A stretch of 64,000 nucleotides of DNA from Faecalibacterium sp. CAG:74 (GTDB lineage: Archaea > Thermoplasmatota > Thermoplasmata > Methanomassiliicoccales > Methanomethylophilaceae), in NCBI GenBank assembly GCA_963635855.1, contig CAVHHN010000001.1, positions 1,820 through 65,819 on the forward strand, given 5' to 3'. Shown here one piece after another: positions 3,900-37,531 of the stretch. The translations under genes were made by a program, and so were the position numbers. The stretch's first letter is position 1. Every line of letters begins with the position of its first letter. Below the pieces are notes generated by a model that worked only from the letters and a program-made list of their open reading frames with translations, was not told the DNA's origin and searched no databases.

Positions 3900-4186
3900 A
3901 AATAACACCTTCAACAAACCCCTCCGCAACTTGAGTGCGAGAAAAGACACACACTCTGCATTTGCAGAGCCTTGTCTTTTCTCGTACAACACAGCACCTT
4001 CATTGAGTTCTTACCATTCTGTGCAGAAGTTAGGGGCATATTCTCACCACCGGACATAAAGAACACACAGATCATTGCTCCGAAGAAAGGCTGTACTTTA
4101 CCAACCAGTTTAATACACTCTACACAATTCTGTAGAATTGCCGGATCCCCGATAAACACTGAGATACCCAACCTGGAGGAGCTGTC

Positions 4187-6460: not shown

Positions 6461-6557
6461 GCCAAAAACCTGTAAGGATATACATGTCCGACCCTTGGGG
6501 GTCAGCCCCAAGGGTATTGAAAAATGGTGAATGGTTCGTAGTGCCAGATATCAAAAA

Positions 6558-22300: not shown

Positions 22301-23704
22301 TATGATCTTTTCGACATCCTCCTTGCTGTAAAGGAATTCCCTTTCCAAACGGTCCGCATTATCAAGGTCACGGCCGACCTCACGACCGGATGAAACGGTG
22401 GTCAGATCGAGACAATACTTCTCCAACCAATCCCTGTACGGGTGGGCGGCCGCAAGTGCGGATTTGATCTCTGGGTCATAGATGATCTTGCCTGATGCGG
22501 TATCGATGAGTATCATTTTTCCAGGAGCTAATCTGCCAGCCTCCTTGATATCAGAATCAGCGATAGGTACGACTCCGGACTCCGATGCGAGAATAAATAA
22601 TCCATCCTTGGTCACAGTATATCTTTCAGGGCGCAGACCGTTACGGTCCAACATTCCGCCTGCCAGAACACCATCGGTGAAGAGAAGGGCCGCAGGACCA
22701 TCCCACGGCTCCATCAGGATCGAGTTGTATTCATAGTATGCTTTGAGCGAATCAGGAATAGGGTTCTTATTGTTCCAGGATTCGGGGACCATGGCAGTGA
22801 TGGCGTTCGCCATGCTGAGTCCGGACCTGACAAAGAACTCGAAAACATTGTCGAATGATGCACTGTCGCTCATTCCCGGCTGAACTATCGGGAACACGGA
22901 ATTCTCGCCAGAAAATCCAGGCACCGAGAGAATTCCTTCTCTGGCGGAGATCCACGAACGATTTCCGTTGATGGTATTGATCTCTCCGTTGTGGCACAAC
23001 ATCCTGAAAGGCTGGGCCAGTTTCCACATCGGGTTGGTGTTAGTGCTGAATCTTGAATGCACCATTGCAATGGCAGATTTGAACGCGGGATCGGTAAGAT
23101 CTGCGTAATAATCACGGATCTGTTCAGGGGTCAGCATACCTTTGTAAGTGAGGGTGCGAGTGGACAGACTGCAGATATAGAAATAAGGGTCCGTGACCTT
23201 GTTGGAGACCCTTTTCCGTACAATGAACAGCTTCCGTTCGAGTGCAGACTGTTCGTCATAACTGCTGATGAAGACCTGAACAATATGAGGTTCGGTCTCC
23301 AAAGCCAAAGGCCCAGGAACGGAATGGTCAACGGGTACTTCCCTGACCTGGATCATAAAAAGACCCAGGCGGGAACACTCATCCTTAAGGACTGAAAGTT
23401 CGCGCTCGGATTCGGCGGGATCTTTCGAAAGGAAAAGAATTCCGGTTCCGTAACGCCCTGCGTCAGGGACCGGTATCCCGCACTTTAGAATGAACTCGTG
23501 CGGAACCTGAACGGTGATACCGGAACCGTCTCCGGTACGCCCGTCAGCATTTTCGGCACCACGATGTGCCAGATTCTCCAAGATGGTAAGTCCGTATTCG
23601 ACTATTCCGTGGTCCTGGGCCCCATTGATGTTGACGGCCATCCCGACCCCGCAGGAATCTTTTTCATCCGCGGGGTCGTAGAGGCCGGTCTTGCGATTGA
23701 TCAA
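19322..23704 (-). CDS. gltB: Glutamate synthase, single large chain (amidotransferase + central + FMN + GXGXG domains)
   Basis: N-terminal nucleophile context EKDSCGVGM, an FMN-domain region (SGGDGGTGAAP) and a C-terminal GXGXG beta-helix. The start is proposed at TTG 23704 (MINRKTGLYDP), 9 nt after GGAG. The ATG at 23869 would overlap glnA by 149 nt. Confidence 0.88.
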   Translation of the reverse strand: MINRKTGLYDPADEKDSCGVGMAVNINGAQDHGIVEYGLTILENLAHRGAENADGRTGDGSGITVQVPHEFILKCGIPVPDAGRYGTGILFLSKDPAESERELSVLKDECSRLGLFMIQVREVPVDHSVPGPLALETEPHIVQVFISSYDEQSALERKLFIVRKRVSNKVTDPYFYICSLSTRTLTYKGMLTPEQIRDYYADLTDPAFKSAIAMVHSRFSTNTNPMWKLAQPFRMLCHNGEINTINGNRSWISAREGILSVPGFSGENSVFPIVQPGMSDSASFDNVFEFFVRSGLSMANAITAMVPESWNNKNPIPDSLKAYYEYNSILMEPWDGPAALLFTDGVLAGGMLDRNGLRPERYTVTKDGLFILASESGVVPIADSDIKEAGRLAPGKMILIDTASGKIIYDPEIKSALAAAHPYRDWLEKYCLDLTTVSSGREVGRDLDNADRLEREFLYSKEDVEKIIIPMAQTMKEPVASSNSDIPLAALSDLPQLFYNYFKQSFAQVTNPPIDPIREELVMSLMGYIGSVHSSILEASADTCKTVKIRHPVLTNRELDLLRNLAYRGFTSVTIPIVFDISGKNDGLKGALDEICRKAEEAVDEGHSYIILSDRSVDATHASIPSLLALSAVHSHLVNRKKRSQTGLIVETGEAREVEHMALLFSYGATAVNPYLVFNIISKCCSEGKISYDPDTAEWRYIRSLEKGIEKVMSKMGIATIRSYRGSCLFEAVGLDQDFCGKYMSGTRSSIGGIGIEQIAEDSIARHESAFGDLSQDLPDYGYYAFHKGGERHAWSPEVVKILRSSAEDPSKFKVFAKDMECEAAQSFFVRDLMDFKHGTKVPLEEVESASSIVKRFVVEAMSFGAISKEAHETLAEAANTLGCKSNCGEGGEDPSRNGTSTRSKIRQVASGRFGVNADYLVHADELQIKVAQGAKPGEGGQLMGFKVDAVIAATRNTIPGITLISPPPHHDIYSIEDLKQLIFDLKSINPTAKISVKLVSESGVGTVACGVAKAGADLILISGGDGGTGAAPMSSMRYAGMPFDIGLAEVQQALVCNGLRGRVTLQADGQIKTGKDVILAALLGAEEYGFATAALISIGCIMCRKCQTNTCPVGIATQDPERRAKFKGKPEHLVNYFNCVAEEVRNYLSEMGFHTLDEVIGRPDLIVRRETPGRASMIDISKITVKAEGERMRSTGQADILKGVFDKRIISDVGASLDSGKRVDLQYSIRNVDRSVGTMLSGELIRRGCALKDDTINVRFNGSAGQSFGAFLCKGITFSIDGQCNDYVGKGLSGGKIAVYRSSDADLSCNVIAGNTLLYGATAGELYVAGAVGERFCVRNSGAIAVAEGVGDHCCEYMTGGRVVVLGSCGRNFAAGMSAGIAYVLNDSGDFDRHCNMDMVELELLSVRDKDELRTILENHVRYTGSKKAKELLDNWSENCSRFLKVMPIGYKQLLQARN

Positions 23705-23720
23705 GGGGCCACACTCCGAC

Positions 23721-25904
23721 TCAGTGGATGAACAGCAGTTCTCTGTACTTGGGGAGTGGCCACATCTGGTCATCGACGAGGAGTTCGAGCGAATCGACAT
23801 GTGCCCTGATCTTTTCGAGCAGGGGAACGACCTCATCGTGATACTTGACAGCCTCTGCGCGTCCCTCACCGATGTGTTCGAACTTATCGACCAGGACCTC
23901 GAGCTTGTCGATCATGGCCTCTGCACCGGAAATGTCCTCGGAGATACATTTGATGAGGTCGCTCTGAGAAGCAGCCATCTTCTTGAACTCGCTTGCGGAA
24001 TAGATCGCCTTGAGGTTGTTAACGTTCTCAAGAAGGACGTTCTGGTAGCGGATAGCCACAGGGATGATATGGTTGGTCACGAGATCACAGAGGGTCTTGG
24101 CCTCGATGGCGATCTTCCTACAATAGATCTCAAGGAAGACCTCTTTCCTTGACTCGAGTTCGACCTTGGTGAGAACGTGTTCAGACTTGAATATCTTGAC
24201 GGTCTGGGAGCTGGTGTACGCATCCATACATACAGGAACCGAACTCTCACAGTCGAGACCACGCTTGGCGGCTTCGACTTTCCATTCGTCAGAATATCCG
24301 TTACCATCGAAGCATATGTCCCTGCAGGCACGGTAGGTCTCACGGGTCTCATCGAGAACGGCCTTGAGTGCGTCATCGCCAGCAGAGATCCTCTTCTTGA
24401 CCGCATCGGTGAATTTGTGGATCTGATATGCCAAGATGGTGTTGAGGATGGTGATGGGTCCAGAACAGTTGGCGGATGAACCGACGGCCCTGAACTCGAA
24501 TCTGTTACCAGTGAATGCGAACGGAGAGGTTCTATTCCTGTCGGTGTTGTCGACCATAAGGTCGGGAACCTGGGGAATGCCGAGGCTGTACCCTTTCTTA
24601 CCGGCGATCTTGACCATGTCCTTGCTGTTGAGAAGTTCCTCAAATGCAGCATGGACCTGGGTTCCGAGGAATGAGGAAATAATTGCGGGAGGGGCCTCAT
24701 TGGCTCCAAGCCTGTGTGCATTGGATGCAGTGAGCACAGACGCTTTCAGAAGAGCATTGTTGTCATAGACCGCCTTGAGGGTGTTGGCCATGAAACAAAG
24801 GAATCTGAGATTCTCCGCATCGGTCTTTCCGGGAGACATGAGTCCGATACCGCTCTCGGTTCCGATGGACCAGTTGCAGTGCTTACCGGATCCGTTGACA
24901 CCTGCGAAAGGCTTCTCGTGGAGAAGGACCGCGAAACCGTGCCTCATGGCGACATACCTCATAACGGACATCAAGAGGAGGTTGTGGTCGATGGCAAGGT
25001 TAGAAGACTCATAAACAGGGGCGATCTCGAACTGTCCGGGCGCAACCTCATTGTGCCTTGTTTTTACGGGAATACCGAGCTTGTAACACTCATACTCGAG
25101 ATCTTTCATAAAGCCCATGACCCTTGGAGGGATGGATCCGAAATAGTGGTCCTCAAGCTGCTGGTTTTTGGACGAGACATGACCGAGAAGGGTGCGCTCG
25201 GTAAGTACGAGGTCAGGCCTCTGTGCATAAAGGTCCTTGTCAACGAGGAAATATTCCTGTTCCCAACCAAGATATGAGTGGGTGACCTCATTGGGGTACC
25301 CCATAAGTGCCAGAAGATCGGACGCAGCCTTGGTGACAGCAGCATCTGACTTGAGGAGGGGGGTCTTGTAATCAAGTGCTTCTCCAGTGTAAGAAATGAA
25401 CACGGTCGGGATACAAAGCGTGTCTCCGATGATGAATGCGGGAGATGAGGGGTCCCATGCGGTATATCCCCTTGCTTCGAATGTGTTCCTTAATCCACCA
25501 CTTGGGAATGATGATGCGTCAGGCTCCTGCTGGCACAGTAATTTTCCGCTGAAGTTCTCGATCGATTCGTCACGTCCGCGAGGGTCGGCAAAAGAGTCGT
25601 GTTTCTCCGCGGTACCGCCAGTAAGAGGCTGGAACCAGTGAGTGTAGTGAGTGACGCCTTTGTCGATGGCCCACCTCTTCATTCCGGCTGCGACATAATC
25701 TGCGATGGATTTGTCCAGGGTCGCACCACGCTCGATGGTCTCATAAATGGCCCTCCTGGTGTCCTCATCGAGGTATTTCCTCATAGCGGCCCTGTTGAAA
25801 ACATTGCATCCGTAGTATGCAGAGGTCTCACGATTCGGGGCGACGGCAACAACCGGTTCTTTTGCAGTAGCTTTGCTAACTGCTTCGAATCTGAAATTTA
25901 TCAT
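23721..25904 (-). CDS. glnA: Glutamine synthetase, type III
   Basis: 727 aa, a length typical of type III GS. A central GS catalytic-domain region (NGSGKHCNWS, HRLGANEAPP) and a long C-terminal helical extension. Confidence 0.88.
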   Translation of the reverse strand: MINFRFEAVSKATAKEPVVAVAPNRETSAYYGCNVFNRAAMRKYLDEDTRRAIYETIERGATLDKSIADYVAAGMKRWAIDKGVTHYTHWFQPLTGGTAEKHDSFADPRGRDESIENFSGKLLCQQEPDASSFPSGGLRNTFEARGYTAWDPSSPAFIIGDTLCIPTVFISYTGEALDYKTPLLKSDAAVTKAASDLLALMGYPNEVTHSYLGWEQEYFLVDKDLYAQRPDLVLTERTLLGHVSSKNQQLEDHYFGSIPPRVMGFMKDLEYECYKLGIPVKTRHNEVAPGQFEIAPVYESSNLAIDHNLLLMSVMRYVAMRHGFAVLLHEKPFAGVNGSGKHCNWSIGTESGIGLMSPGKTDAENLRFLCFMANTLKAVYDNNALLKASVLTASNAHRLGANEAPPAIISSFLGTQVHAAFEELLNSKDMVKIAGKKGYSLGIPQVPDLMVDNTDRNRTSPFAFTGNRFEFRAVGSSANCSGPITILNTILAYQIHKFTDAVKKRISAGDDALKAVLDETRETYRACRDICFDGNGYSDEWKVEAAKRGLDCESSVPVCMDAYTSSQTVKIFKSEHVLTKVELESRKEVFLEIYCRKIAIEAKTLCDLVTNHIIPVAIRYQNVLLENVNNLKAIYSASEFKKMAASQSDLIKCISEDISGAEAMIDKLEVLVDKFEHIGEGRAEAVKYHDEVVPLLEKIRAHVDSLELLVDDQMWPLPKYRELLFIH

Positions 25905-26010
25905 AACGAGAGCAATCCGTAGTTTATTAATATACTTTTCTAAAAATCAATTCAAAAAATATAGATTAAGTTCCGTTTATTGCTTAAACAATTACAAAAA
26001 TCTTTTTAAT

Positions 26011-26026
26011 TTAGACATTTGTCTAA
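26011..26026. promoter_or_regulatory. Perfect palindrome upstream of glnA (candidate operator)
   Basis: TTAGACA-TT-TGTCTAA lies 107-122 nt upstream of the glnA ATG in an AT-rich intergenic region. Confidence 0.3.
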
Positions 26027-26083: not shown

Positions 26084-26098
26084 AGGGGCAGAGCCCCC
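26084..26098 (-). terminator. GC hairpin plus T-rich tract after the PP2C gene
   Basis: On the minus strand, GGGGGCTCTGCCCC is followed by TCTTTCTTTC, about 55 nt after the stop at 26153. Confidence 0.4.
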
Positions 26099-26152
26099 AT
26101 CTGAAAATGTGAGATTGCATTCAACAAGATCGTTTGGATCGCTCAAAATACT

Positions 26153-28033
26153 TCATTCAGCATTAGAACAGTCAAGTTTCTTCCACACTGTGAATATGTT
26201 CTGTCCATTGAAGTACTTATAATCTGCATATGTCACTAGTTTTTTGATCATATGGATACCAAATCCGCCGATAGGCCAATCACTGAGGTTCTCATCAATT
26301 GTGATCTCCTCTAAATTGAGAGGATTGAACGATTCCGAACTATCTGCAAAGGTCAGTTTGATCTCATTATCACGTGAACTGCAGTAGACGGTAACATCTC
26401 CCTCCTGATCGCCTTTGGAATGGTCACAGATATTGACGAATATCTCCTCTGCGACGATCTCCATTTTAAGAACGTCTTTGATCTTAAATCCTTGAGCGAC
26501 TAGTTGGGATTCCAAAAAGGCATTGATATTCACAAGTTCCTCCACATTTCTGGGAACGACAAATTTGTGATACTGCGGACGGTTAACAATGAAACACAGC
26601 ATTGTTATGTCATCTGACTGTGTCCACGTTCCTACGAACTCTTTTACCGCAGATTGGACCGCCTTCACGATAGATTTCGCATTGTTGTCTCCCACACTGT
26701 TGAGAACATTCTCCAAACGTTCACGACCGAACTGTTCGCCCGCCTCATTAAATGCCTCATTGACACCATCAGTGTAACAAAAGAAGGTGTCGACATCAGA
26801 CAGAGCGATCGTATCGGTTTTGTAGTGTATTGACCGGTTCACACCGATCATCAATCCTTTTTTCACAGGAAGTTTTTCAAAGCTTCCATTAAGGTGCCTG
26901 ACCATTGGCGGAGGGTGCCCTGCGTTGGCATATTGCAAAACACCGGTATCGGAATCATAGATCCCCATCCAAACTGTAATGAACTGCTCCGCAGCATTTC
27001 TGGAACATATCTCTTTGTTGAATGCGGTGAGGATACGTCCGGGATCATTGCGCAACATGGCTGTGGCCCTTAAAGCTCCCATGGCGCTCATCATCATCAA
27101 TGAAGCGGGGAGCCCTTTATCAGACACATCAGCAACAACGAAGGCAGTGAGGTTCCTCCGAATAGCGAAACAATCGTAAAAATCCCCTGCAACCTCAGTA
27201 GCAGGCACCATTATCCCATAGATATCCAAAGACCGGGTGATAGGAAATTCAGCCGGGAGTGATGCTAATTGTATGTCCCTTGCAATAACAAAATCATGTT
27301 CTGCACGTTTAACATTCTCTTGAGTTTCTATTAACCGCATATACTTGTAAAACAGAACAAGAGCCAAGTATCCGAATATTAAGATGGATAGATCGGACCA
27401 AATATAAAGGGTCCAGAGCTGTTCAGGATGGTCCCACTGGTGCCATTCCGAGATCATAGACGGGATGAAAAAAGCATATATGGCAGCAAGCAGCAAAGGT
27501 GCCACATACCATATTTTATATTTCTTTAGAAGACCGAGTACTACAGAAATTGCTGTTGCGGCGATCACCAACAGATCTACATAGTTCTCCGCTTGGAGAT
27601 ACATGCAATTGTGTAGAAAAAGAACGTGGATCGATAGAGAGATGGCAGACACCACCACCACATACACAGGTCCACCGATCATACCTGTCAGTATGATCGG
27701 AATGTACGCAGTTTGGAATAATGCTTGAGAACCTACCAGGATACTATCCATAATGGTCATACTGACCATCAGAGCGACAAAAGCACATTTGTAATACCAC
27801 TTAGAAGAACTGGATTCCGTAAGTTCGTGGAACATGCGCCCGCGGAACAACATGTATATGATCAACATGGATACAATGGTCCACGCGACACCGTCACTCA
27901 TGCCACTCGTGACTCTGTAATATGGAAATTCTTGTACTCCCAGATTGTAATTTACGTATGCGGCACAAACCGAAATAAGCGTCAAAAGAATAAACAAATT
28001 CTGTAGAACAGCCACTTTGTTATCGATTTTCAT
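26153..28033 (-). CDS. Polytopic membrane PP2C (SpoIIE/RsbU-type) phosphatase fused to a C-terminal RsbW/SpoIIAB-like HATPase domain
   Basis: About 10 TM segments at the N-terminus. PP2C metal motifs are present: GDFYDCF, VADVSDKGLPASLMM, YTDGVNEA and SDDITMLCF. The C-terminal ~130 aa carry the N-box-like EEIFVNICDH and FADSSESFNP. Confidence 0.8.
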   Translation of the reverse strand: MKIDNKVAVLQNLFILLTLISVCAAYVNYNLGVQEFPYYRVTSGMSDGVAWTIVSMLIIYMLFRGRMFHELTESSSSKWYYKCAFVALMVSMTIMDSILVGSQALFQTAYIPIILTGMIGGPVYVVVVSAISLSIHVLFLHNCMYLQAENYVDLLVIAATAISVVLGLLKKYKIWYVAPLLLAAIYAFFIPSMISEWHQWDHPEQLWTLYIWSDLSILIFGYLALVLFYKYMRLIETQENVKRAEHDFVIARDIQLASLPAEFPITRSLDIYGIMVPATEVAGDFYDCFAIRRNLTAFVVADVSDKGLPASLMMMSAMGALRATAMLRNDPGRILTAFNKEICSRNAAEQFITVWMGIYDSDTGVLQYANAGHPPPMVRHLNGSFEKLPVKKGLMIGVNRSIHYKTDTIALSDVDTFFCYTDGVNEAFNEAGEQFGRERLENVLNSVGDNNAKSIVKAVQSAVKEFVGTWTQSDDITMLCFIVNRPQYHKFVVPRNVEELVNINAFLESQLVAQGFKIKDVLKMEIVAEEIFVNICDHSKGDQEGDVTVYCSSRDNEIKLTFADSSESFNPLNLEEITIDENLSDWPIGGFGIHMIKKLVTYADYKYFNGQNIFTVWKKLDCSNAE

Positions 28034-29760
28034 ACGGTCACCGTGAGATTGTTCAGTTTCAGGGAATAACTATATTCGATATTCTTCGCGGCAGCATGTA
28101 CGACCTTGATCCCCAAATGTCCGTCCGTGTCAGCGACAATGGGATTGAATCTGACACCGTCATCCCGCATACGAAATATCACATCATCTCCTTCCTTCAC
28201 GATGCGTATATCGATAGAGTGATCCGTCTCATCATTGAAAGCATGTTCCACGACATTTCCTGCCATCTCCTCTATACAGAGAGCAATACGATCTGCCCGG
28301 TCCTGAGGGATGTTGTGCTCCACACACATTTCAGAGATCTTCCCAACTAGCCCCGAGACCTCTTCCATTTTGTTTGTTATGGACAATTCACACACCGTAT
28401 CAATGTCGAAGACGCTGGATTTCGCGACAACGAAGTCCTCCATATGACGAGGGAATTTTCCCGACTTCGTCCAGATGAACAGCATGATGGTGAGAACGGA
28501 TAACACGTCCGCGAGGAAGAAGGAGATCCACACTCCGTCAAGACCTATGAGCGGGGCGAGGGCAAAAGACACTAGAATGACATACAGTGCACCCCTTGAT
28601 AGAGAGATAACATTCGACATCAGGAGATTTCCCATCGTCTGATACATATAAAGGAAGATCAGGCAAACGGTCGAAGTTGGCTGAGAGATGGCAAAAAGTC
28701 TGAGACATCTGGCCGCGAGGTCCAGATCCCCCCCGTCAGCGATGAACATCCCAGCGACTGGTTTTGCGAATATGAACAGCAAAACAGCCACTATTGTGGA
28801 TAGTGTGATCCCAGATTTCAAAGCGACGCGAAGTGTGTCTGTGATAGCCCTCCGATCCCTCTCTCCGAAGAAGATCCCACACATCGTGGCGACCATGAGT
28901 CCATATCCGGTGGAAATGGCGATCAAGAACTGGTATACATTGGTCTGAACCGATAATGCCAGCACGGCCGCCGATCCTCCAAGGGACAGCAGGAACACAT
29001 TGAGCACGAGGTTTTTGATGGTCTGAGATCCCCTGTTTATAGCGGTGGGAAGACCGGCCATACAGATATCTTTCAGTACAGTCCGGGAACCAGAGGGGGA
29101 ACAAAACCTGAGCATACGTTCCCTTCTTTTAAAATGGGTCATGGCAATGAACAATCCGGCAAGATTGCCGACCATGATGGAGGCCCCGATACCAAAAAGA
29201 CCCAGATTGGTGGATGATGCACAGAACAGTGCCACCACGGTGTTCGCGACAATGACCACAATCATGGAGATCAAGGAAATTCTCTGGTTGCTATCCATCC
29301 TCAGATAGATCAACAGGTTCTGTAACAGTAGAAAGGGTATGGCGGATATCCCAAGACCGCGAATGTAGCCGGCCGCCATGCCCTCGATGTTGTCACCAGC
29401 TCCGAACAGGTTCGAAAGCGGATCAGCGAGTAAAAGACAGAACAGCATATACACTGCGCCCACCGATATAGAAGACAACGTCGTCGCAGTAAAGTTCAGC
29501 TGAACTGCAGTCATGTCCCCTCTACCGATATGATTGGCACATTTTATCGCACCCCCGTTGCTGAAGATGCCGGATACAGCCCCTAGAAGAAGGAATACGG
29601 GGGATGTGAGACCGAAGGCAACAAGGGCGTCGGAACCTAACAGTTGCCCGATGATAAGACCATTGATGACCATGCTCAGCGTGGCTGTAAGCGTCACTAA
29701 AATAGTAACAGCCAAATGACCGTGCAGGACCTTCTCGATCAGATAGGTGTTGGTATGCAT
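28030..29760 (-). CDS. MATE-family exporter fused to a C-terminal RsbW/SpoIIAB-like HATPase domain
   Basis: About 12 TM segments over roughly 440 aa with a MATE-like duplicated layout. The soluble tail carries CIEEMAGNVVEHAF (E..N...H N-box) and RMRDDGVRFNP (G1-box-like). ATGA overlap with the PP2C gene. Confidence 0.75.
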   Translation of the reverse strand: MHTNTYLIEKVLHGHLAVTILVTLTATLSMVINGLIIGQLLGSDALVAFGLTSPVFLLLGAVSGIFSNGGAIKCANHIGRGDMTAVQLNFTATTLSSISVGAVYMLFCLLLADPLSNLFGAGDNIEGMAAGYIRGLGISAIPFLLLQNLLIYLRMDSNQRISLISMIVVIVANTVVALFCASSTNLGLFGIGASIMVGNLAGLFIAMTHFKRRERMLRFCSPSGSRTVLKDICMAGLPTAINRGSQTIKNLVLNVFLLSLGGSAAVLALSVQTNVYQFLIAISTGYGLMVATMCGIFFGERDRRAITDTLRVALKSGITLSTIVAVLLFIFAKPVAGMFIADGGDLDLAARCLRLFAISQPTSTVCLIFLYMYQTMGNLLMSNVISLSRGALYVILVSFALAPLIGLDGVWISFFLADVLSVLTIMLFIWTKSGKFPRHMEDFVVAKSSVFDIDTVCELSITNKMEEVSGLVGKISEMCVEHNIPQDRADRIALCIEEMAGNVVEHAFNDETDHSIDIRIVKEGDDVIFRMRDDGVRFNPIVADTDGHLGIKVVHAAAKNIEYSYSLKLNNLTVTV

Positions 29761-29763
29761 CGC

Positions 29764-30060
29764 TCATTCCAGAGTGAGGATCTCGTCGAGGCCCGTCTCC
29801 GTGAAAACCTCCATAACGAGTTCTGGCACATTCTTGAGAGTTAATTTTCCGTCATTCTTGACCATTTTTTTCTCAAGTGCCAGAACAACCCTGAGACCAG
29901 CACTGGATATGTAGATACATGGTGACAGGTCGAGTATGATGCTCTTGGTATCATCACTTATCTGTTTGTTCATATCAGCCTCGAATTCAGGAGAGGTCGT
30001 CCTGTCCAATTTACCCTCAATAACCGCTTTGATCTCTGTACCGTTCTTTAAGATCTTCAC
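29764..30060 (-). CDS. STAS-domain protein (SpoIIAA/RsbV-type anti-anti-sigma-like)
   Basis: 98 aa with DLSPCIYISSAGLRVVLAL, which matches the STAS phospho-serine loop (D.s...fi.SsGL..L). GTG start forms a GTGA overlap with the GH3 gene stop. Confidence 0.85.
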   Translation of the reverse strand: MKILKNGTEIKAVIEGKLDRTTSPEFEADMNKQISDDTKSIILDLSPCIYISSAGLRVVLALEKKMVKNDGKLTLKNVPELVMEVFTETGLDEILTLE

Positions 30061-31757
30061 TGTTCTCCCTCCCTGTCAATAAGCACCCTGAAGAAGCGGA
30101 GTTGTACTTCATTCATGATTATTTTAACTGGTTTTACCTGAGTGGATGCTCCACCCATCATAATTTGTTTGTCTCTCCACAGAGCATAGGTCTCGTCCTG
30201 CAGATAGTGGGATACGACCGGTCCGGTAAGATTCATCTCAAATCTGTAATCAAGCAATGGATTTACCTTCACAAGCTCCTTCTGCAGACGGGCGGATAAT
30301 TCACTGAGGCCCACTTTGGGATGTCTAGGACATTCTATAAAGAACCTGTAGCATGGTGGCGCCATATCAGTGTCCGGATACACACAGAAGTCCATATAGT
30401 CGAAGTCCAGTTCCTTCGCGGTGGCGTCCATTGCAGCTCTAAGAGTTGGTTCATAGGTTTTCTCACCGTTGAGGTTGACGCACAGGTCTATACGATATAG
30501 ATATTCCATGGTGGGAAGGTTGTTGTACATCTTTACGAAACGGATAGCATCACGTGTTCTGTAACGATAAAATCCCGACATAGTGGTCAAAATGACCTCA
30601 TATTCCTTTCCGATCTCCACTTCGGTCAAGGTGCATGTCTTCGACGGATCCTCTTCCCCAAGGGGAAGGAACTCTAGGAACATTGTGTTGCCCAGTGGTG
30701 CGAAGTCCGAGACGTTGAAATCATAGGGAGTGGAGATCGCACCCTCAGATGCGACAAGCCCGGTCATAAAGATCGGTACCTCCTCCGAAATGAAGTTATC
30801 CCTGAGTTTACGCAGATACGCCGAGAATGTTCCGGTACTGACCCCGAGAATGAAAACAAGGTTTGGCCAGATCCTCTTAGCGATCGTGTTATCGAAACCT
30901 TCTGTGAATATTTTCCTAAGTTCCTGTGCCCTTTCAGGCATCGGAATCAATTCCGATTCTAGCTTTGTACGGACAGCATCTGTCATCTTCACCGCAGGAT
31001 CGATCTTTCCGGACTCGATGTCGTCGCATAGCATTTTCCAGTTGTCCCGGATGTAATGGAACATATCCAAAAGGAAGGTGATGAAGGTTGTCTGCAAGCT
31101 CGTCACATCCCTGCATACCAGACCATACCTTGCATGCAAGTATCTGGTGTCCGTCTGTTTATCCGGACAGACCGCTTCAAGAGGGGAGGTGAACATCCCC
31201 GATTGCGTTACCTGCCAATCATACACGGCCTGCCCCGAAACACCAAAATATCTCTTAGGTGGGGTACCGATAACGGTCATGGCATATGCTTCAGACACAG
31301 AAAGTGCCCTTCCTTTGAGGAAATCGGTACCGAACCTCCTCACCGCCATAGCATAAGGGCTCGCAAAAGCGTAATCGATCATATAATCCATAGATATGGA
31401 GGACATGGGAATCCTCTTAGGGTTACCCATTGTTCCAGAGGACCTGTTGTATTGGGCCACACCATATACAGAGTGAAGGTGCTCCTCATTACCTGTCAAT
31501 TCACGGACCACATATTCTGCATAATCATCGAAGACCGTGAGCGGTACCTTCTTCTTGTAATCCTCAATTGTCTTGATCTCGGAAAACCCGTACTTTCTTC
31601 CATACTCAGTATTCCCGTTGTCTGCCAGGATCTTGAAGAGAAGTTTCTCCCCGATACTGCCGGGGTCCTTGGAAAATGCCTCCAGGTCGTCCAACGCTTT
31701 TTTACCGCGTTCTGCCGCGGAACGATTCAGCTGATAGGTTTTCTCCGAATCTACCAT
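30057..31757 (-). CDS. GH3-family adenylate-forming acyl-acid amido synthetase-like protein
   Basis: About 566 aa. The N-terminal region (EKLLFKILADNGNTEYGRKYGFSEIKTIEDYKKKVPLTVFDDY), SSGTMGNPKRIP and the overall length match the GH3 (auxin-responsive promoter) family. The start was trimmed to ATG 31757. Confidence 0.7.
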   Translation of the reverse strand: MVDSEKTYQLNRSAAERGKKALDDLEAFSKDPGSIGEKLLFKILADNGNTEYGRKYGFSEIKTIEDYKKKVPLTVFDDYAEYVVRELTGNEEHLHSVYGVAQYNRSSGTMGNPKRIPMSSISMDYMIDYAFASPYAMAVRRFGTDFLKGRALSVSEAYAMTVIGTPPKRYFGVSGQAVYDWQVTQSGMFTSPLEAVCPDKQTDTRYLHARYGLVCRDVTSLQTTFITFLLDMFHYIRDNWKMLCDDIESGKIDPAVKMTDAVRTKLESELIPMPERAQELRKIFTEGFDNTIAKRIWPNLVFILGVSTGTFSAYLRKLRDNFISEEVPIFMTGLVASEGAISTPYDFNVSDFAPLGNTMFLEFLPLGEEDPSKTCTLTEVEIGKEYEVILTTMSGFYRYRTRDAIRFVKMYNNLPTMEYLYRIDLCVNLNGEKTYEPTLRAAMDATAKELDFDYMDFCVYPDTDMAPPCYRFFIECPRHPKVGLSELSARLQKELVKVNPLLDYRFEMNLTGPVVSHYLQDETYALWRDKQIMMGGASTQVKPVKIIMNEVQLRFFRVLIDREGEQ

Positions 31758-32107
31758 AAACCTCGAACAAAGTTCTGTTATAAATGTGTGGCGAACATAT
31801 ATCCAGGGCCCAGAAACCAAGATAACTCACTAGATCGGATCAAGTCCGCAAAATAACTGAGAAGAACACTAGATTGTTTTTCCTCGGTCGATCAATGTCC
31901 CTATTTCGGGGCAGTAGGGAGTATAAAAATTTAAGCATACTTAAACTAAGGTCAATTTGTGTAATTATTACCAAAAATACACACATACACTAAATGTGCC
32001 AGATTAAAAATTCATTTTCATAAATACCTCGGAATAACAAGGCATTGTTATCTGGGACAGGTCTTAATATTAGTACCAGGTTCTACATATAATAAGGAGG
32101 TACACCA

Positions 32108-33025
32108 GTGGCGATTTTTTTCAAAGGTGGCGAACAGCTGTTCAACGAAGGTATCGACCTCGTCGGCAGAAAAAATTTCAAAGACGCAAAACGCAAATTC
32201 CTCGATGCTATCGAAAAGGGATACAACAAGGACGGACTGGCAAACGTCTATGCCTCACTGATCACAGTAGGTGAGAACAGGTCCAATATAGGCGCATACA
32301 AATCATTACTCGACGATCTGAACAACCTTCCCGTTGGATCTTTCAAGTTCGGTCTCACAGATGTTGTCACAGAGGACCTTCGCACTGAGGTCCAACTGGA
32401 CATTGATGAGATCAATGCTAGCAACATCAATGATTCCGATTACCAGACTAAAGGAAACGCATACATCGAGTGCGCAGGAAAGTTCTCATCACTCATAGGT
32501 GATAAAAGCCTTGCTCTCGACGAGATCTTCAAAGGAAACTCGGTTGCCACCGGTACCAGAGAAGGACTCATCCTCCAGGCAGAGGGATACAGCATCCTCG
32601 GTAAAGGAACCGTCAACGCTGACCCTAAACTCGCTGCGGAATATATGCAGATGGCATACAACTTCCGCAAACAACTCGGAGACAAAGGAGAAGAAGAACT
32701 TGGGCTGTCCAAAGACTATGCCAGGTCCGCCAAATGTTGGATCTGTGGCAGGCCGGCGAACGGAGAAGGTATTCACTTCATGGCCATGCGGAGTACGATC
32801 GAACCAGTGTTTGCGAGCATGACCACGAACGATGTTGTCAAACCGATCTCCGAAGACATGGAAAATATCTATGTGTGCACTCCCTGTTACACTGCGATCT
32901 CGAACAAATCCGATGAGATCTCGAGATACTACTACGACAGTGCAATGGCAGAGATGAGGGCCATGGAAGCTAGGCTTGAGGCCGAGATCTCATCCCTCAG
33001 ATTCTCTGCAGCAATGCGCAGGTGA
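32108..33025 (+). CDS. Hypothetical protein: helical (TPR/MIT-like) N-terminus, internal Cys4 zinc finger, coiled-coil tail
   Basis: GTG start 7 nt after AAGGAGGT. CWICGRP...CTPCYTAI forms a CxxC-N41-CxxC pair. Confidence 0.6.
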   Translation: MAIFFKGGEQLFNEGIDLVGRKNFKDAKRKFLDAIEKGYNKDGLANVYASLITVGENRSNIGAYKSLLDDLNNLPVGSFKFGLTDVVTEDLRTEVQLDIDEINASNINDSDYQTKGNAYIECAGKFSSLIGDKSLALDEIFKGNSVATGTREGLILQAEGYSILGKGTVNADPKLAAEYMQMAYNFRKQLGDKGEEELGLSKDYARSAKCWICGRPANGEGIHFMAMRSTIEPVFASMTTNDVVKPISEDMENIYVCTPCYTAISNKSDEISRYYYDSAMAEMRAMEARLEAEISSLRFSAAMRR

Positions 33026-33029
33026 TTGA

Positions 33030-34574
33030 ATGGATGAAATGATGGCACTGAGGTGTAAATACTGCGGTGCCCCACTTGATGAAAACGCGGTAAAGGATGA
33101 TAGTCCGTATGTGACATGTACCAGTTGCGGTACCACTCAGCAGAAATTGGACGCCCGCGAATACCTGAACCAATTGATGGGACAGGTACGTTCCTGGGTC
33201 AACAGCGCAATGCCTGGGGGAATGGCCTCATTCACCGGAAACCAGAATGTCGATAGTGTTGCAAGACACAATATCTTCATGACCAACTTCAAACCCCGTA
33301 TCGATATGGAGTTCACGAAGTACAAATTCGGATTCAACAACCTATTGTCCCAGGTCATGATGGTCCTGCCTTTCACTGAAGACAAGAATGTGAAGTCCAA
33401 CGACACATCGAACTCGGTGTTCGAGTTCGGTGCCAAGATGAAGGAGATCTCCCCGCTTGCGGTCAGTGACGAGTCCACATCGATCATGAACGAGGTCTCT
33501 GGGGTCACGGATGCTTATGCACTTCTGATCAACAACACAGAGCTCATTCAGAACGATAAACCTGGAAGATTCACTCTCATGGCCAGCAATTTCACCATCG
33601 CTTCCCAGGATTTCGCCAAGATCAAAGGATATGAACCTGCACAGAAACGTTTCGAAGGACTTGCTGCTCTATGTCAGGGATGTGAAAAACTGACCAATGG
33701 AGATATTGCCTCCTCCTTCGGACTTTTCTCTAAAGGAAAATCCCTCCTTGAAGAGGCCTCCAAAGAAATCACAGGAAACCTCAAGGTCGCAGTGATGAGT
33801 CAGGCCGTGTCGCAGGAGATCAAACAAGCGGACGTCCTCATTGAACTGGCAGAATATGTCAACAACATGGGCGGTTCAAAAGAGGTTTTCGATGCGGTCA
33901 GGCGCATATTCACCTACCAATTCCCTGCCACGGGAAACTGGTCGTTCCTTCTGAAGAATCGTGACAGGTTCTCCGAGATATTCACTTTCATGTCGACAGC
34001 GGTCAAGGCCCGTTCTGGATCTGGCACTATTCCTGTTACATCTGGATCGGGGAATATCCTTGTCCCCTTCTGGTATGTCAAATTAAAATACAGTTTCCAG
34101 ACCGGGTCTCTGTGGAAGAAACACAGTGTTGAGGTTGAAGAACCCTTGCTTGTTCCTGCAGACTTCGTCATCGATGGAGAATGCCTGAGCAACCCTCGCA
34201 CTGCCGTGACCGATGTGTTCTCCGTCAAAGGAAACAACGGAATGTTCGCAGGACTCACCGGCAATGAAACCAGCATCAGCAACTCTCAAGGAATCGACAG
34301 ACTGATCGAGTCTGCATCCCAGAGTTCCGCAGATGGCAGGGAAGTTGTTGTACCGTTGAGCACCAGGCGTGAAGCAGAAAGGATCAGCGAATCCTATGTT
34401 CAGGCGGTCTCGAGGGTCGAATCAAAACTCAAACTCAGCAACCCGGACGTGATCGACCTGATCTACATCCCCTTCACTAAATCCAACAACAGGTACCAGC
34501 CCAATGATTCGTTCGGCATACTTCTCCCCAAGAGGGTTGCCAATACAGATCTGTCTCAATTGATAGTAATATGA
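33030..34574 (+). CDS. Hypothetical protein with an N-terminal zinc ribbon
   Basis: CKYCGAPL...CTSCGTTQ at residues 9-35, AGGTGA RBS, and a 4-nt gap to the upstream gene. Confidence 0.6.
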   Translation: MDEMMALRCKYCGAPLDENAVKDDSPYVTCTSCGTTQQKLDAREYLNQLMGQVRSWVNSAMPGGMASFTGNQNVDSVARHNIFMTNFKPRIDMEFTKYKFGFNNLLSQVMMVLPFTEDKNVKSNDTSNSVFEFGAKMKEISPLAVSDESTSIMNEVSGVTDAYALLINNTELIQNDKPGRFTLMASNFTIASQDFAKIKGYEPAQKRFEGLAALCQGCEKLTNGDIASSFGLFSKGKSLLEEASKEITGNLKVAVMSQAVSQEIKQADVLIELAEYVNNMGGSKEVFDAVRRIFTYQFPATGNWSFLLKNRDRFSEIFTFMSTAVKARSGSGTIPVTSGSGNILVPFWYVKLKYSFQTGSLWKKHSVEVEEPLLVPADFVIDGECLSNPRTAVTDVFSVKGNNGMFAGLTGNETSISNSQGIDRLIESASQSSADGREVVVPLSTRREAERISESYVQAVSRVESKLKLSNPDVIDLIYIPFTKSNNRYQPNDSFGILLPKRVANTDLSQLIVI

Positions 34575-34583
34575 GGTGAGAAC

Positions 34584-34961
34584 ATGGAGAACACAGGTAA
34601 CAAATACAGAACACGCGAGGCCGTGGTGGTAGCATTCGTGCTCATCGCTTTGGCCTTTGCGGTCATAATATATGGGGCCACCGACGCAGGAGTTGTCGGT
34701 GCCCTTGGCGCATTCCTAGCTGTGGCAGGTGTCGGACTTGCCGCATTGTCTACGCTTTTCGACAGTACCCCTGACAAATTCGGACCTTCTGAGATGCTGT
34801 ACCGTATGGTCTTCGGCACCCTTATGTTCGTCGCCGGAGTTGTGTGTCTGATGCATGCCTATGATGTAAAATGGTACATCACCGTGGCGGTCGTCATCAT
34901 CGCTATCGCGGTCGTCGGTCTTTGTGCGGCACTTGTGAACGGTAAGAATTCAAAATACTGA
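34584..34961 (+). CDS. Small integral membrane protein (about 4 TM)
   Basis: 125 aa with four hydrophobic helices and a GAGGTGA RBS. Confidence 0.6.
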   Translation: MENTGNKYRTREAVVVAFVLIALAFAVIIYGATDAGVVGALGAFLAVAGVGLAALSTLFDSTPDKFGPSEMLYRMVFGTLMFVAGVVCLMHAYDVKWYITVAVVIIAIAVVGLCAALVNGKNSKY

Positions 34962-34970
34962 GGAATCAAA

Positions 34971-35510
34971 ATGACAAATGCATTGGAAAACAGCGCAGAA
35001 GAGTCCATCGCAAAAAACAGGACGCTCATCGAGAGGATCTCGATGTATGTCCCGTTCTACAAAGGATACAAACAGAAGAATCTCCGCAGGGATGAGGACC
35101 GCGCGATCAGAGAGGTCGTGGCCAAGGTCCTTACTGCGATCAAGAACGACCTGGCAAACGCTTCCAGGGCCACCATAGGGGACCTTGATGCAATGAGAGA
35201 TATGGAACGTATCAAGACCAAGGTCGACAGATATTGTACTGATGTGAAGAAAGCGGTCTCAGGATACAGTGGGATCCACGCCACGGTCAAGATCCTCGAG
35301 TCCGAGCTCGACCGTGTTATCGAGTGGGATGCAAACCTGATCGATGATGTCGAACTGCTCAAACAGCAGTCTGAGAAAATGATGCATGACGCCGATGAAG
35401 GGCTCAGCATCAAAGCAGACATGAGACTCATCGAACAGACCGTTGATGAAATGATCAACACATTCCGCCAGAGAGACAACGTTATGAGGAACCTTGTCGA
35501 GGAGGCTTGA
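34971..35510 (+). CDS. All-alpha coiled-coil protein (possible PspA/ESCRT-III-like; unverified)
   Basis: 179 aa, charged and heptad-like, with no Cys or TM segment. It sits directly before the SPFH gene. Confidence 0.5.
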   Translation: MTNALENSAEESIAKNRTLIERISMYVPFYKGYKQKNLRRDEDRAIREVVAKVLTAIKNDLANASRATIGDLDAMRDMERIKTKVDRYCTDVKKAVSGYSGIHATVKILESELDRVIEWDANLIDDVELLKQQSEKMMHDADEGLSIKADMRLIEQTVDEMINTFRQRDNVMRNLVEEA

Positions 35511-35512
35511 AC

Positions 35513-36640
35513 ATGGCACTAGGAAAGAAAGAAGAGAAAAAGACCAATGTGGTATTTTGGAAAGAACAAGGTCCCAATGACATCATCTATGTGTCACCAG
35601 ACGACGATCTAAGAGTGATCACCTCGGTGACCGTTCCCGAGCACGCTGTCGCCCTTTTCATAAGGGATGGACAGCTTCAGGGAGTTCTAGAGCCCGGAAG
35701 GCATGTCGTCACCTCGAACAACATCCCCTGGCTCACTGCATTGTACAACAAGATGCTCGGATACAGGGACACCCCGTTCAAAGTTTGGATCGTCTTCATT
35801 TCCCTGAAGATGTTCAACGGTAAATGGGGTATCCGCGGAATGATCAAGGCCGCACAGGGCTACGATGTGCCCATCACCCTCATGGCCAATGGAGAATTCC
35901 AGTTCAGGATCACCGACGTGTCCGTGTTCTACACCCAGGTATTGGGTGGAATGAAAACCTACTCTACTGGAGATGTCAATGCTTTCATGAAGAGCTTCAT
36001 CAACGAGCAGATAACCCAACAGCTCGCACAGAAGTACTACATGGAGGTCATGCAGAATCTAGAGGTTGCTTCCACCAGCACCAAGATCCTCCTCGACCCC
36101 TATTTCCAGCAGAGGGGTATCGAACTTCTCTCTCTGAAGATCAACGAGGTCTCCACCACTGAGGAAGAGAAAACCAAGGTATTCGAATATCTCCAGTTCA
36201 GCAGCAGCAACGGAGAAGCGTTCAAGAGGTATGAGGTCATGGATAGAATGGCAGATGCTATCGGAGATTCGCAAGGTGGTGCAGCAATGGGTGCAGGAAT
36301 GCTCCTGTTCCCTCAGATGTACCAGCAGCTTAACCAACAGTCCGTACAAGGTGTGCAGAACCAACAGGCCGCTGCACAGGCACAGAAGGTCATGTGCCCA
36401 TACTGCGGATCGCTCAATGAATACCCATACAGGTTCTGTGGAAACTGCGGAAAGCCTTCTCCCCAACTTCAGCCCGTTGCGACTGCAACACCCACCCCTA
36501 CCGCTCAGGCCGCACCTGCGACCAATGGGGCCACTGCAGCACCTGGCACATTCAAACGTTGCCCCTATTGTGGCGAAGATCTTAGCACTCTCAAGAAGAC
36601 CCCTAAGTTCTGCCCATACTGTTCTGAGGAACTTTCGTAA
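35513..36640 (+). CDS. SPFH/band-7 family protein of the COG4260 (B. subtilis YdjI-like) type with two C-terminal zinc ribbons
   Basis: The N-terminal pattern VPEHAVALFIRDGQLQGVLEPGRHVV...NIPWL...PFKVWIVFIS...KWG is typical of that family. Q-rich and PTA-rich linkers are followed by CPYCGS..CGNCG and CPYCGE..CPYCSE. ATG 35513 lies 7 nt after GAGGAGG; the ORF track starts at TTG 35507. Confidence 0.72.
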   Translation: MALGKKEEKKTNVVFWKEQGPNDIIYVSPDDDLRVITSVTVPEHAVALFIRDGQLQGVLEPGRHVVTSNNIPWLTALYNKMLGYRDTPFKVWIVFISLKMFNGKWGIRGMIKAAQGYDVPITLMANGEFQFRITDVSVFYTQVLGGMKTYSTGDVNAFMKSFINEQITQQLAQKYYMEVMQNLEVASTSTKILLDPYFQQRGIELLSLKINEVSTTEEEKTKVFEYLQFSSSNGEAFKRYEVMDRMADAIGDSQGGAAMGAGMLLFPQMYQQLNQQSVQGVQNQQAAAQAQKVMCPYCGSLNEYPYRFCGNCGKPSPQLQPVATATPTPTAQAAPATNGATAAPGTFKRCPYCGEDLSTLKKTPKFCPYCSEELS

Positions 36641-36650
36641 ACCTATTAAC

Positions 36651-36666
36651 CCGGCCTTCGGGCCGG
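36651..36666 (+). terminator. GC hairpin after the five-gene operon
   Basis: CCGGCC-TTCG-GGCCGG lies 11 nt after the stop and is followed by ACCATTTTAT. Confidence 0.5.
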
Positions 36667-36687
36667 ACCATTTTATAAAGTGATATT

Positions 36688-37515: not shown

Positions 37516-37531
37516 ATTTATCCCCGCACAT

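Follow-up and report, generated by a model that had tools for sequence, protein, structure and literature searches.

A GH3 ligase, a STAS protein and two RsbW-like domains in a candidate partner-switching cassette of gut archaea and Firmicutes

The partner switches of Bacillus, RsbV-RsbW-RsbU (sigma-B) and SpoIIAA-SpoIIAB-SpoIIE (sigma-F), are built from three protein families: a STAS protein with a phospho-serine loop, a HATPase_c_2 protein, and a membrane-bound PP2C phosphatase of the SpoIIE type. The same three families are encoded together with a GH3-family ligase and a MATE exporter in a four-gene cassette of an archaeon of the Methanomethylophilaceae (assembly GCA_963635855.1, deposited as Faecalibacterium sp. 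CAG:74; the window analysed here is the stretch of 64,000 nucleotides (nt) at positions 1,820 to 65,819 of contig CAVHHN010000001.1). The STAS protein of the cassette matches RsbV and SpoIIAA, and the C-terminal tail of the MATE protein best matches RsbW and SpoIIAB. Unlike in the Bacillus systems, there are two RsbW-like domains, neither of which is free-standing (one is fused to the MATE transporter, the other to the phosphatase), the ATP lid of the MATE tail is shortened, and scores against RsbW equivalog models are below the cut-off. To our knowledge, archaea have no sigma factors, and because the host is archaeal the classical sigma-factor output is presumed to be absent here. With moderate confidence we interpret the operon as a GH3 and MATE biosynthesis and export unit under the control of a partner-switching phospho-relay without a sigma factor, probably acquired from gut Firmicutes, because the domain motifs are present, the genes are coupled, the unit is conserved despite differing flanks, and its parts recur in bacteria. 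All parts of the textbook switch for sigma factors would then operate in a sigma-less organism, and the fusion of one RsbW-like domain to a transporter points to direct post-translational control of export, possibly also of the ligase.

Partner switches with a non-sigma output are known. In SiaABCD of Pseudomonas aeruginosa the diguanylate cyclase SiaD is under the control of the STAS protein SiaC; SypE/SypA and BtrUVW are further examples. MlaB-MlaF couples a STAS protein to a transporter and, like SiaABCD, also exemplifies a partner switch with an enzyme instead of a sigma factor as its target. In Anabaena, All4160/HenR, with a STAS-glycosyltransferase, extended partner switching to a biosynthetic enzyme (bioRxiv 10.64898/2026.04.08.717354). 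In All4160, SiaABCD, SypE/SypA and BtrUVW phospho-STAS acts on an enzyme or machine, as proposed here for the cassette, but these systems lack an RsbW-tailed MATE transporter, a GH3 ligase and an archaeal host. In the SLC26/SulP family a C-terminal STAS domain is functionally coupled to the membrane transporter (PMC8256260); compared with SLC26 and MlaB-MlaF the cassette is inverted, in that the transporter bears the kinase-like partner, the STAS protein is free, and a kinase/phosphatase pair is encoded alongside. The presence of a PP2C and an RsbW-like domain in one polypeptide is shared with Rv1364c of Mycobacterium tuberculosis (RsbU-RsbW-STAS) and with bacterial SpoIIE+HATPase_c_2 proteins, an architecture widespread in bacteria, where it is combined with many kinds of N-terminal sensor. 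Unlike Rv1364c, however, the cassette protein has a multi-transmembrane sensor (of the 5TMR-LYT type in orthologues), the STAS protein is separate, and the module lies inside a GH3/MATE operon. Stressosome-type rsbRSTX modules (related STAS/RsbT-kinase signalling) have been noted in some archaea (PMC9237108). An earlier interpretation of the window (hereafter the sequence-only reading) named no described system with this fusion architecture, and in the searchable literature we likewise found no description of a MATE-RsbW-like fusion or of a link between GH3 and STAS. The RsbW-like/MATE fusion, the obligate GH3-STAS pairing and the compact archaeal four-gene form appear to be undescribed.

The four open reading frames (ORFs) are located on the minus strand and span 26153-31757 in the order GH3, STAS, MATE-HATPase_c_2, PP2C-HATPase_c_2 (Table 1). 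When the junctions were read directly from the sequence, the TGA stop codon of the GH3 gene overlapped the GTG start codon of the STAS gene (caGTGAag, 30057-30060), three nt separated the STAS gene from the MATE gene (tga-gcg-atg, 29761-29763), and the stop codon of the MATE gene overlapped the ATG of the PP2C gene (gtATGAaa, 28030-28033). The coupled minus-strand genes and junctions described in the sequence-only reading were confirmed in this way, and the motifs quoted there (YISSAGLRVV, the N-box CIEEMAGNVVEH, DDGVRFNP, EEIFVNICDH, and ADSSESFNP) were all found. A TATA-like box precedes the GH3 gene at a spacing that would give a leaderless or near-leaderless archaeal transcript, and the operon probably ends about 55 nt beyond the last stop codon, at a GC-rich hairpin that is followed by a T-rich tract. 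Because the genes overlap or abut and are framed by a possible TATA box and a possible terminator, they look like one operon. A scan of the window with Rfam returned tRNAs only and no match in the operon leader region, and beyond the cassette no further partner-switching genes were found within the 64 kb. An anti-phage defence system was considered and dismissed, as PADLOC-DB gave no match for any of the four proteins.

Pfam matches of the four proteins were judged against the curated gathering cut-offs and all exceed them, so that the families expected from the sequence-only reading (GH3, STAS, MatE, HATPase_c_2 and SpoIIE) were each recovered. The first protein, earlier called a GH3-family adenylate-forming ligase, matches GH3_N (3.9e-61), GH3_M (3.2e-20) and GH3_C (1.4e-10); its best sequence matches in the PDB are the plant enzymes GH3-1, JAR1 and PBS3 (4e-42 to 3e-40), with which it shares the three-domain architecture and the nucleotide motifs, and SSGT, ASE and YRxxD line up with VvGH3-1. 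The three domains and three motifs bear out the assignment, and by sequence the protein is a member of the acyl-acid amido synthetase family. OlsH, the sole characterised bacterial GH3 protein that we found in the literature (PMC12493201), is a lyso-ornithine lipid synthetase of ornithine-lipid synthesis, and this identity was rejected for the window protein (NF052613, 66.3 bits against a cut-off of 620). In contrast to the plant enzymes and OlsH, the window GH3 belongs to a large uncharacterised clade of gut Firmicutes and methanogens in which it is paired with STAS; homologues with 41-47% identity are abundant in gut Firmicutes and occur also in other archaea. No GH3-STAS fusion was present among the 120 closest GH3 homologues (all 529-589 amino acids (aa)). 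In locus L012, from a close relative of the window organism, GH3 genes are arranged in tandem (3961-5739 and 6005-7705; the second copy is 72% identical to the window gene at the nt level), and L092 and L095 likewise carry multiple GH3 copies.

For the second protein, proposed to be a STAS protein with an intact phospho-serine loop, the Pfam STAS match (8.2e-14, 51.7 bits vs 22.6), a score just above the NCBIfam cut-off for anti-sigma factor antagonists (TIGR00377, 54.9 vs 53.45) and an alignment with RsbV of Bacillus subtilis (6m36_B) agree with the proposal. In this alignment the predicted phospho-acceptor Ser53 (nt 29902-29904) is placed at the Ser of the YMDSTGLGV loop. The motif Y(I/V/L)SSAGLR is near-invariant in 42 STAS proteins of related loci and kept in 7 more. 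As judged from these matches, the protein is a single-domain member of the RsbV/SpoIIAA type.

The third protein consists of a MATE transporter domain of the MOP superfamily and a HATPase_c_2 tail, and both parts of this earlier description stand. The transporter matches MatE (PF01554; 4.6e-27, 95 bits, in two stretches), an AlphaFold2 (AF2) model of the full protein (predicted local distance difference test (pLDDT) 85.9; predicted template-modelling score (pTM) 0.83) has 12 long helices followed by a compact alpha/beta domain, and Foldseek matched this model to PfMATE (3vvs, 4mlb, 6hfb) at target-normalised TM-scores of 0.84-0.86. The equivalog models of multidrug MATE proteins scored below their cut-offs (FepA 115 vs 900, MepA 50 vs 850). 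The transporter domain dominates the search with the full-length model, which returned only MATE and MurJ structures, and a model of the tail only was then used (pLDDT 86.7; a 15-residue coil at the position of the lid). All of its top 17 Foldseek matches are anti-sigma serine kinases (SpoIIAB 1tid with a TM-score of 0.75 and an E-value of 7.8e-8, UsfX 8ih8 and 8jzt, and RsbW 6m37), and it also matches the RsbW domain of Rv1364c (3ke6) and, more weakly, SiaB-SiaC (6kko). The tail further matches PF13581 (1.8e-10, aa 463-573, 41.4 bits vs 27.4), and the profile of its family matches RsbW 6m36 at 1.4e-5 with a deletion of about 16 aa in the lid. Among 24 aligned MATE tails E498 and N502 of the N-box, the G1 Asp D533, F538 and G550 (the lone G2 glycine) are invariant, and the G1 glycine G535 is kept in at least 90%. 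The lid is about 10-16 residues shorter than in RsbW/SpoIIAB, and in the window only 17 residues lie between the G1 Asp and the lone glycine at the G2 position.

The fourth protein combines a membrane sensor region, a PP2C domain and a second HATPase_c_2 domain. Its N-terminus had been described as having about 10 transmembrane helices, which was not supported by the Kyte-Doolittle profile (Table 1). The sensor region of the window copy gave no Pfam hit at E≤10 and only a weak match to NCBIfam GdpS (0.049); two cassette orthologues (P0097, P0093) match 5TMR-LYT (PF07694) with 27.5 and 25.4 bits vs 24.6. This region is the fastest-diverging part of the cassette and could not be aligned at the nt level with loci L010 and L012, which suggests rapid diversification of the sensed signal. 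The PP2C domain matches SpoIIE (PF07228) at 1.5e-46 (159 bits vs 25), and in an alignment of 22 homologues the motifs GDFYD, ADVSDKG, YTDG and SDDIT and the residues D284, D287, D302, D422, D474 and D475 are invariant, in line with the earlier statement that all metal-binding Asp motifs are present. The tail matches PF13581 (2.1e-15, aa 494-615, 57.3 bits vs 27.4), so that both tails of the cassette match HATPase_c_2, the MATE tail also structurally; in the PDB the only sequence match of the PP2C tail, a weak one (E 0.046), is B. subtilis RsbW (6m36), with ADSSESF aligned to ADEGDSF and GGFGIHM to GGLGLYL. E530, N534, D564, G589, G590 and G592 are invariant in the 22 aligned tails, and the lid has its full length of 25 residues, as in RsbW. 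The claim that this domain has lost its glycines holds for the G1 glycine, in whose place the clade of the window, and only this clade, has Ser or Ala (DxGxPF is kept in a second archaeal clade and most bacterial homologues), but not for the G2 box (GGFGI), which is kept along with the full-length lid. Both tails scored far below the equivalog cut-offs for RsbW/SpoIIAB (17.4 and 28.2 bits vs 145 for NF003144; 14.3 and 21.1 vs 155 for TIGR01924), and for this reason we regard the two domains as homologous to RsbW but not as RsbW orthologues.

The sequence-only reading implied a kinase role for the MATE tail. These roles are probably reversed, as the lid of the MATE tail is shortened and the PP2C tail keeps both the lid and the G2 box. 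The PP2C-fused domain also has free-standing RsbW-like counterparts: the nearest bacterial clusters (L021, L022, L008) encode the PP2C protein (531-677 aa) and a HATPase_c_2 protein of 135-148 aa in separate genes, and the latter matches the archaeal PP2C tail at 4e-19 but the MATE tail only at 3e-4. On these grounds the PP2C-fused domain is predicted to be, probably, the STAS kinase. The archaeal protein may represent a fusion of a phosphatase with its cognate RsbW-type kinase, although a lineage-specific fusion is only one possibility because the PP2C-HATPase_c_2 arrangement is common elsewhere in bacteria. The structural match of the MATE tail to SpoIIAB, UsfX and RsbW, together with its shortened lid and single G2 glycine, argues for a nucleotide-binding but probably non-catalytic domain that serves as a receptor or dock for STAS, and the pTM of the full-length model suggests that the position of the tail is fixed.

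The fusion of MATE and HATPase_c_2 is not confined to archaea. A pattern scan with one genome per species identified it in at least 254 species-representative genomes, 80 of which were retrieved, and among these the carriers outside the archaeal clade are overwhelmingly gut and rumen Firmicutes (e.g., Lachnospiraceae, Erysipelotrichaceae, Ruminococcus, Christensenella, Quinella, and the isolate Butyrivibrio sp. LC3010). When the tail alone served as the profile in an exhaustive search, 117 clusters at 50% identity passed E≤1e-30 and 4,679 passed E≤1e-10; in the best 150 matches the domain is always C-terminal, in full-length proteins of about 575-600 aa. All fetched loci were searched with phmmer for neighbouring genes; the queries were the window proteins and some further neighbours. 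Within 8 kb of the fusion gene in 67 bacterial loci we found a STAS gene in 31 (adjacent in 14), a PP2C gene in 21, a separate RsbW-like HATPase_c_2 domain in 20, and an APH-family kinase in 27 (directly upstream in 19); 35 of the 67 have a STAS, PP2C or RsbW-like gene within this distance. A direct link between STAS and the MATE tail fits these data. Several Firmicutes loci also encode, beside the fusion gene, proteins in which a STAS domain is covalently joined to an aminoglycoside-phosphotransferase-like (APH) kinase; these are of the types STAS-APH (about 386 aa), APH-STAS (485 aa) and, with a further HATPase_c_2 domain, STAS-APH-HATPase_c_2 (517-525 aa). In the nearest bacterial relatives (L021, L022 and L008) the MATE protein is 41% identical to that of the window, STAS and GH3 are also present, and the additional genes are those for a CAAX protease, for peptidases resembling papain or clostripain, and for two proteins, each about 430 aa long, of no assigned family. 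A protein of about 350-430 aa without Pfam match occurs in bacterial GH3/MATE-HATPase_c_2 clusters (L021:9730-11031, L008:6734-7996, L022:2246-3520, L039:5921-6973) and is missing from the archaeal cassette. The architecture represents a large unstudied family, mostly of gut and rumen Firmicutes and host-associated methanogens, and the clusters probably make and export a metabolite of the acyl-amino-acid type in gut ecosystems.

GH3 and STAS remain together where the other genes differ. In every context inspected the STAS gene directly adjoins a GH3 gene, and the SSAGLR loop is kept in all STAS proteins of these contexts. A survey for such co-occurrence had been suggested in the sequence-only reading; beyond the window, GH3, STAS and MATE-HATPase_c_2 were found together, differently arranged, in Methanobrevibacter cuticularis and in Eubacteriales. 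In M. cuticularis (L092) the order is STAS, GH3, GH3, MATE-HATPase_c_2, PaaK-like ligase; in L093 and L094 it is GH3, STAS, PP2C-HATPase_c_2, LuxE, LuxC/AMP-binding, MATE-HATPase_c_2. Three loci on mobile-element-rich gut bacterial contigs (L090, L091, L096) have the order STAS, GH3, ATP-grasp, ABC, ABC, ATP-grasp. An archaeon (L095; GCA_002504405.1; eIF2-alpha, S27e and L44e are encoded nearby) has three GH3 genes in the order RimK, GH3, GH3, RimK, ABC, ABC, STAS, GH3, RsbW-like; a SpoIIE gene lies on the other strand. Across these contexts GH3 and STAS form the constant pair, and the type of exporter, the accessory ligases and the kinase/phosphatase arrangement vary. The LuxE acyl-protein synthetase and LuxC/AMP-binding reductase inserted in L093 (6001-13659) and L094 (GCA_965334605.1, GCA_965353845.1) hint at a carboxylic-acid or aldehyde substrate. 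We also considered, on account of the RimK-like ligases in the L095 variant, a cluster that modifies a methanogen cofactor; this is unlikely, as bacteria carry the same cluster on mobile elements.

The host of the window is archaeal (the window also encodes GatD/GatE, a thermosome and NFACT), and homologues are named Candidatus Methanomethylophilaceae; a copy of the MATE protein that is about 100% identical (P0001; at least two substitutions are visible in the alignments) has the same neighbours on a contig of GCA_963650645.1. The order of the four genes is kept in 13 species-representative loci of the Methanomassiliicoccales type, with MATE proteins 51-88% identical to that of the window; STAS, MATE-HATPase_c_2 and PP2C-HATPase_c_2 are present in all 13 and GH3 in 11 (the contigs of the other two are incomplete). 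The flanks differ among the archaeal genomes (e.g., ribosomal protein genes for L18e and S9, RpoN and an adjacent transposase in L007; adenylosuccinate synthetase and UbiD in L009, with Hjc on the same contig; a different part of the window's own neighbourhood in L011 and L013), and the conservation of the cassette despite this bears out the earlier expectation that its genes are co-conserved. Two loci, L010 and L012, come from records titled Acutalibacteraceae/Eggerthellaceae; these look like mislabelled bins, since they are syntenic with the archaeal flanks of the window (20058-26025 and 31927-37709) at 81-89% nt identity. In the same comparison the cassette (26136-31807) has only 70-82% nt identity, from which we infer that it evolves faster than its surroundings. 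L015 and L019 are also among the records titled as Acutalibacteraceae, Eggerthellaceae or Anaerovoracaceae bacteria, and these were examined at the cassette only.

In a neighbour-joining tree the MATE proteins of the Methanomassiliicoccales form one clade nested inside the bacterial diversity, with a sister group that contains M. cuticularis and the Eubacteriales loci L021, L022, L023 and L008. Because the archaeal clade nests within bacteria, the simplest interpretation is that the cassette probably moved from gut Firmicutes into gut archaea, and the locus is a clear candidate for the inter-domain transfer of a complete module of signalling and metabolism. The description of a bacterial-style module in an archaeon therefore needs qualification: the archaeal host stands, but the module is no archaeal peculiarity and belongs to a large Firmicutes family that was apparently imported.

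In the mechanism that we propose, the fourth protein, with its sensor of about seven transmembrane segments (5TMR-LYT-like in orthologues), its PP2C domain and its RsbW-like domain, would be a bifunctional writer and eraser of the phosphorylation of STAS Ser53. A membrane or envelope signal at the sensor would shift the balance between its kinase and phosphatase activities. Unphosphorylated STAS would dock on the lid-shortened RsbW-like tail at the cytoplasmic face of the MATE pump and turn export on or off, and phospho-STAS would be unable to dock there. GH3 would make the exported acyl-amine conjugate and might be regulated by the same STAS protein, by which synthesis and export would be coordinated post-translationally. 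The cassette would thus probably control small-molecule synthesis and export after translation rather than at transcription. The sequence-only reading, in which the state of STAS gates the MATE pump, is partly supported: this wiring is plausible and gains strength from the comparative genomics. GH3 may itself be a target of the switch, because STAS adjoins GH3 even where the exporter is a tail-less ABC transporter. More tentatively, GH3 and STAS might be the invariant core of a widespread gut switch for synthesis and export, in which phospho-STAS licenses GH3 and an exporter that carries a lid-less RsbW pseudokinase as its STAS receptor, and which moved repeatedly between Firmicutes and methanogens and needs no transcription factor; we consider this wider proposal possible but somewhat doubtful. 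If true, it would represent a post-translational control logic for the production of secondary metabolites without a transcription factor. The cultured carriers (Butyrivibrio sp. LC3010 and M. cuticularis) make the hypothesis directly testable.

Several observations weigh against the proposed mechanism. About half of the bacterial MATE-HATPase_c_2 loci have no STAS, PP2C or RsbW gene within 8 kb, and the tail may have a different ligand or serve a different function. STAS and GH3 are also paired in clusters whose ABC exporters lack a HATPase_c_2 tail, so that STAS must have some role besides gating of the pump. A neighbour-joining tree without bootstrap is the basis for the direction of the transfer. 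The window's own PP2C tail is without the G1 glycine (ADSSES), which might impair ATP binding, and the MATE tail family keeps the Glu/Asn of the N-box and the Asp-x-Gly of G1, which argues for nucleotide binding and a possible kinase. The last two points lead to an alternative that assigns the active STAS kinase to the MATE tail and makes the HATPase_c_2 domain of the PP2C protein a degenerate regulatory pseudokinase (which might, e.g., inhibit the phosphatase intramolecularly or be a second sink for STAS). It would account for the N-box Glu/Asn and G1 Asp in 24 of 24 MATE tails (Gly in at least 90%), for the Ser in place of the G1 Gly in the window's PP2C tail, and for some bacterial loci (e.g., L031, L035, L050 and L082) in which MATE-HATPase_c_2 and STAS are present with no other kinase within 8 kb. 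In GHKL kinases, the ATP lid and the G2 GxG hold the triphosphate. The MATE tail, however, has lost most of the lid and has no G2 GxG, whereas the PP2C tail keeps the lid and the GGxG invariantly, has the G1 Gly in the second archaeal clade and in most homologues from bacteria, and has its counterpart in the RsbW-like genes that stand alone in the nearest bacterial clusters, so that we regard an active kinase in the MATE tail as unlikely.

It is similarly improbable, in our view, that the real target of the switch is GH3, with the STAS protein or an RsbW-like domain binding GH3 and controlling ligase activity and the MATE tail acting as a secondary dock or as a feedback sensor of export status. 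The adjacency of STAS and GH3 in every architecture, including the ABC-exporter clusters without MATE-HATPase_c_2 (L090, L091, L096, L095), the gene order STAS, GH3, RsbW-like in the archaeon L095, the overlap of the GH3 stop with the STAS start in the window, and the known case of a biosynthetic enzyme under the direct control of a partner switch (bioRxiv 10.64898/2026.04.08.717354) speak for such a target. Yet GH3-STAS fusions are absent among the 120 closest homologues, and the consistent fusion of an RsbW-like domain to the exporter (117 clusters at E≤1e-30; C-terminal among the matches listed) would be left unexplained; moreover, control of GH3 is compatible with a switch acting on the pump, the two being not mutually exclusive. 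That the cassette is a recent bacterial import without function in the archaeal host, or mis-binned bacterial DNA, is very improbable. Its GC content is slightly below that of the neighbouring genes on one side (0.43-0.49 vs 0.51-0.53), a transposase adjoins it in L007, and several related records bear bacterial names, but archaeal markers share the contig with the cassette in the window, L007 and L009, the bacterial-titled records are syntenic with the archaeal flanks (81-89% nt identity), and the frames are intact and the motifs invariant across proteins 51-88% identical in at least 13 species-level genomes. A misassembled or mis-binned contig in particular was rejected on account of the archaeal markers on the same contigs and the synteny.

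Table 1. Coordinates of the cassette, its domains and putative operon signals in the window (positions of the 64,000-nt stretch), and of related bacterial and archaeal clusters (locus:positions).
Feature	Position	Strand	Remarks
GH3 ligase gene	30057..31757	-	566 aa, ATG at 31757
STAS gene	29764..30060	-	98 aa, GTG start
MATE-HATPase_c_2 gene	28030..29760	-	576 aa
MATE (MOP superfamily) domain, 12 transmembrane helices	28462..29760	-	aa 1-433 of the 576-aa protein
MATE tail, HATPase_c_2 domain	28030..28428	-	aa 445-576 and stop codon
PP2C-HATPase_c_2 gene	26153..28033	-	626 aa
N-terminal membrane sensor region	27314..28033	-	aa 1-240, ~7 hydrophobic segments (Kyte-Doolittle)
SpoIIE/RsbU-type PP2C domain	26591..27148	-	aa 296-481
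PP2C-fused HATPase_c_2 (RsbW-like) domain	26153..26554	-	aa 494-626 and stop codon
TATA-like box TTTATAA	31778..31784	-	ends ~21 nt upstream of the GH3 ATG; sequence reading and pattern search
GC-rich hairpin, then T-rich tract (GGGGGCTCTGCCCCT then CTTTCTTTCA)	26084..26098	-	consensus scan only
STAS-GH3-ABC clusters	L090:5682-13528, L091:5539-13385, L096:4921-14517, L095:1-11081		RimK-like then Ddl-like ATP-grasp around two ABC exporters; L095 is the archaeal version (three GH3 genes)
Loci with STAS/APH fusions	L041:6821-7978, L047:13363-14523, L078:786-2339, L083:4709-6286, L032:1272-2729		

Some features of the surrounding window were recorded in addition. A divergent cluster of five genes (32108-36640, plus strand) encodes proteins of 305, 514, 125, 179 and 377 aa, the first four of which have no Pfam family (according to a precomputed table for the identical contig), the fifth having Band_7 and zinc-ribbon domains; the cluster is syntenic in L010 and L012. 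Directly downstream of the cassette (19322-25904, minus strand) are genes for a glutamine synthetase of type III (727 aa) and a glutamate synthase of the large-subunit type (about 1483-1515 aa). The overlap of the two is about 50 nt between the ORFs annotated on L001 and about 150 nt between the maximal ORFs of the window. At 4187-6460, 40013-41872 and 58371-63899 the window also contains an ORF of 1842 aa and genes for probable surface or adhesin-like proteins of a kind that host-associated microbes typically have, namely a BspA-type LRR_5 protein (1e-84) and a protein with Listeria-Bacteroides repeats.

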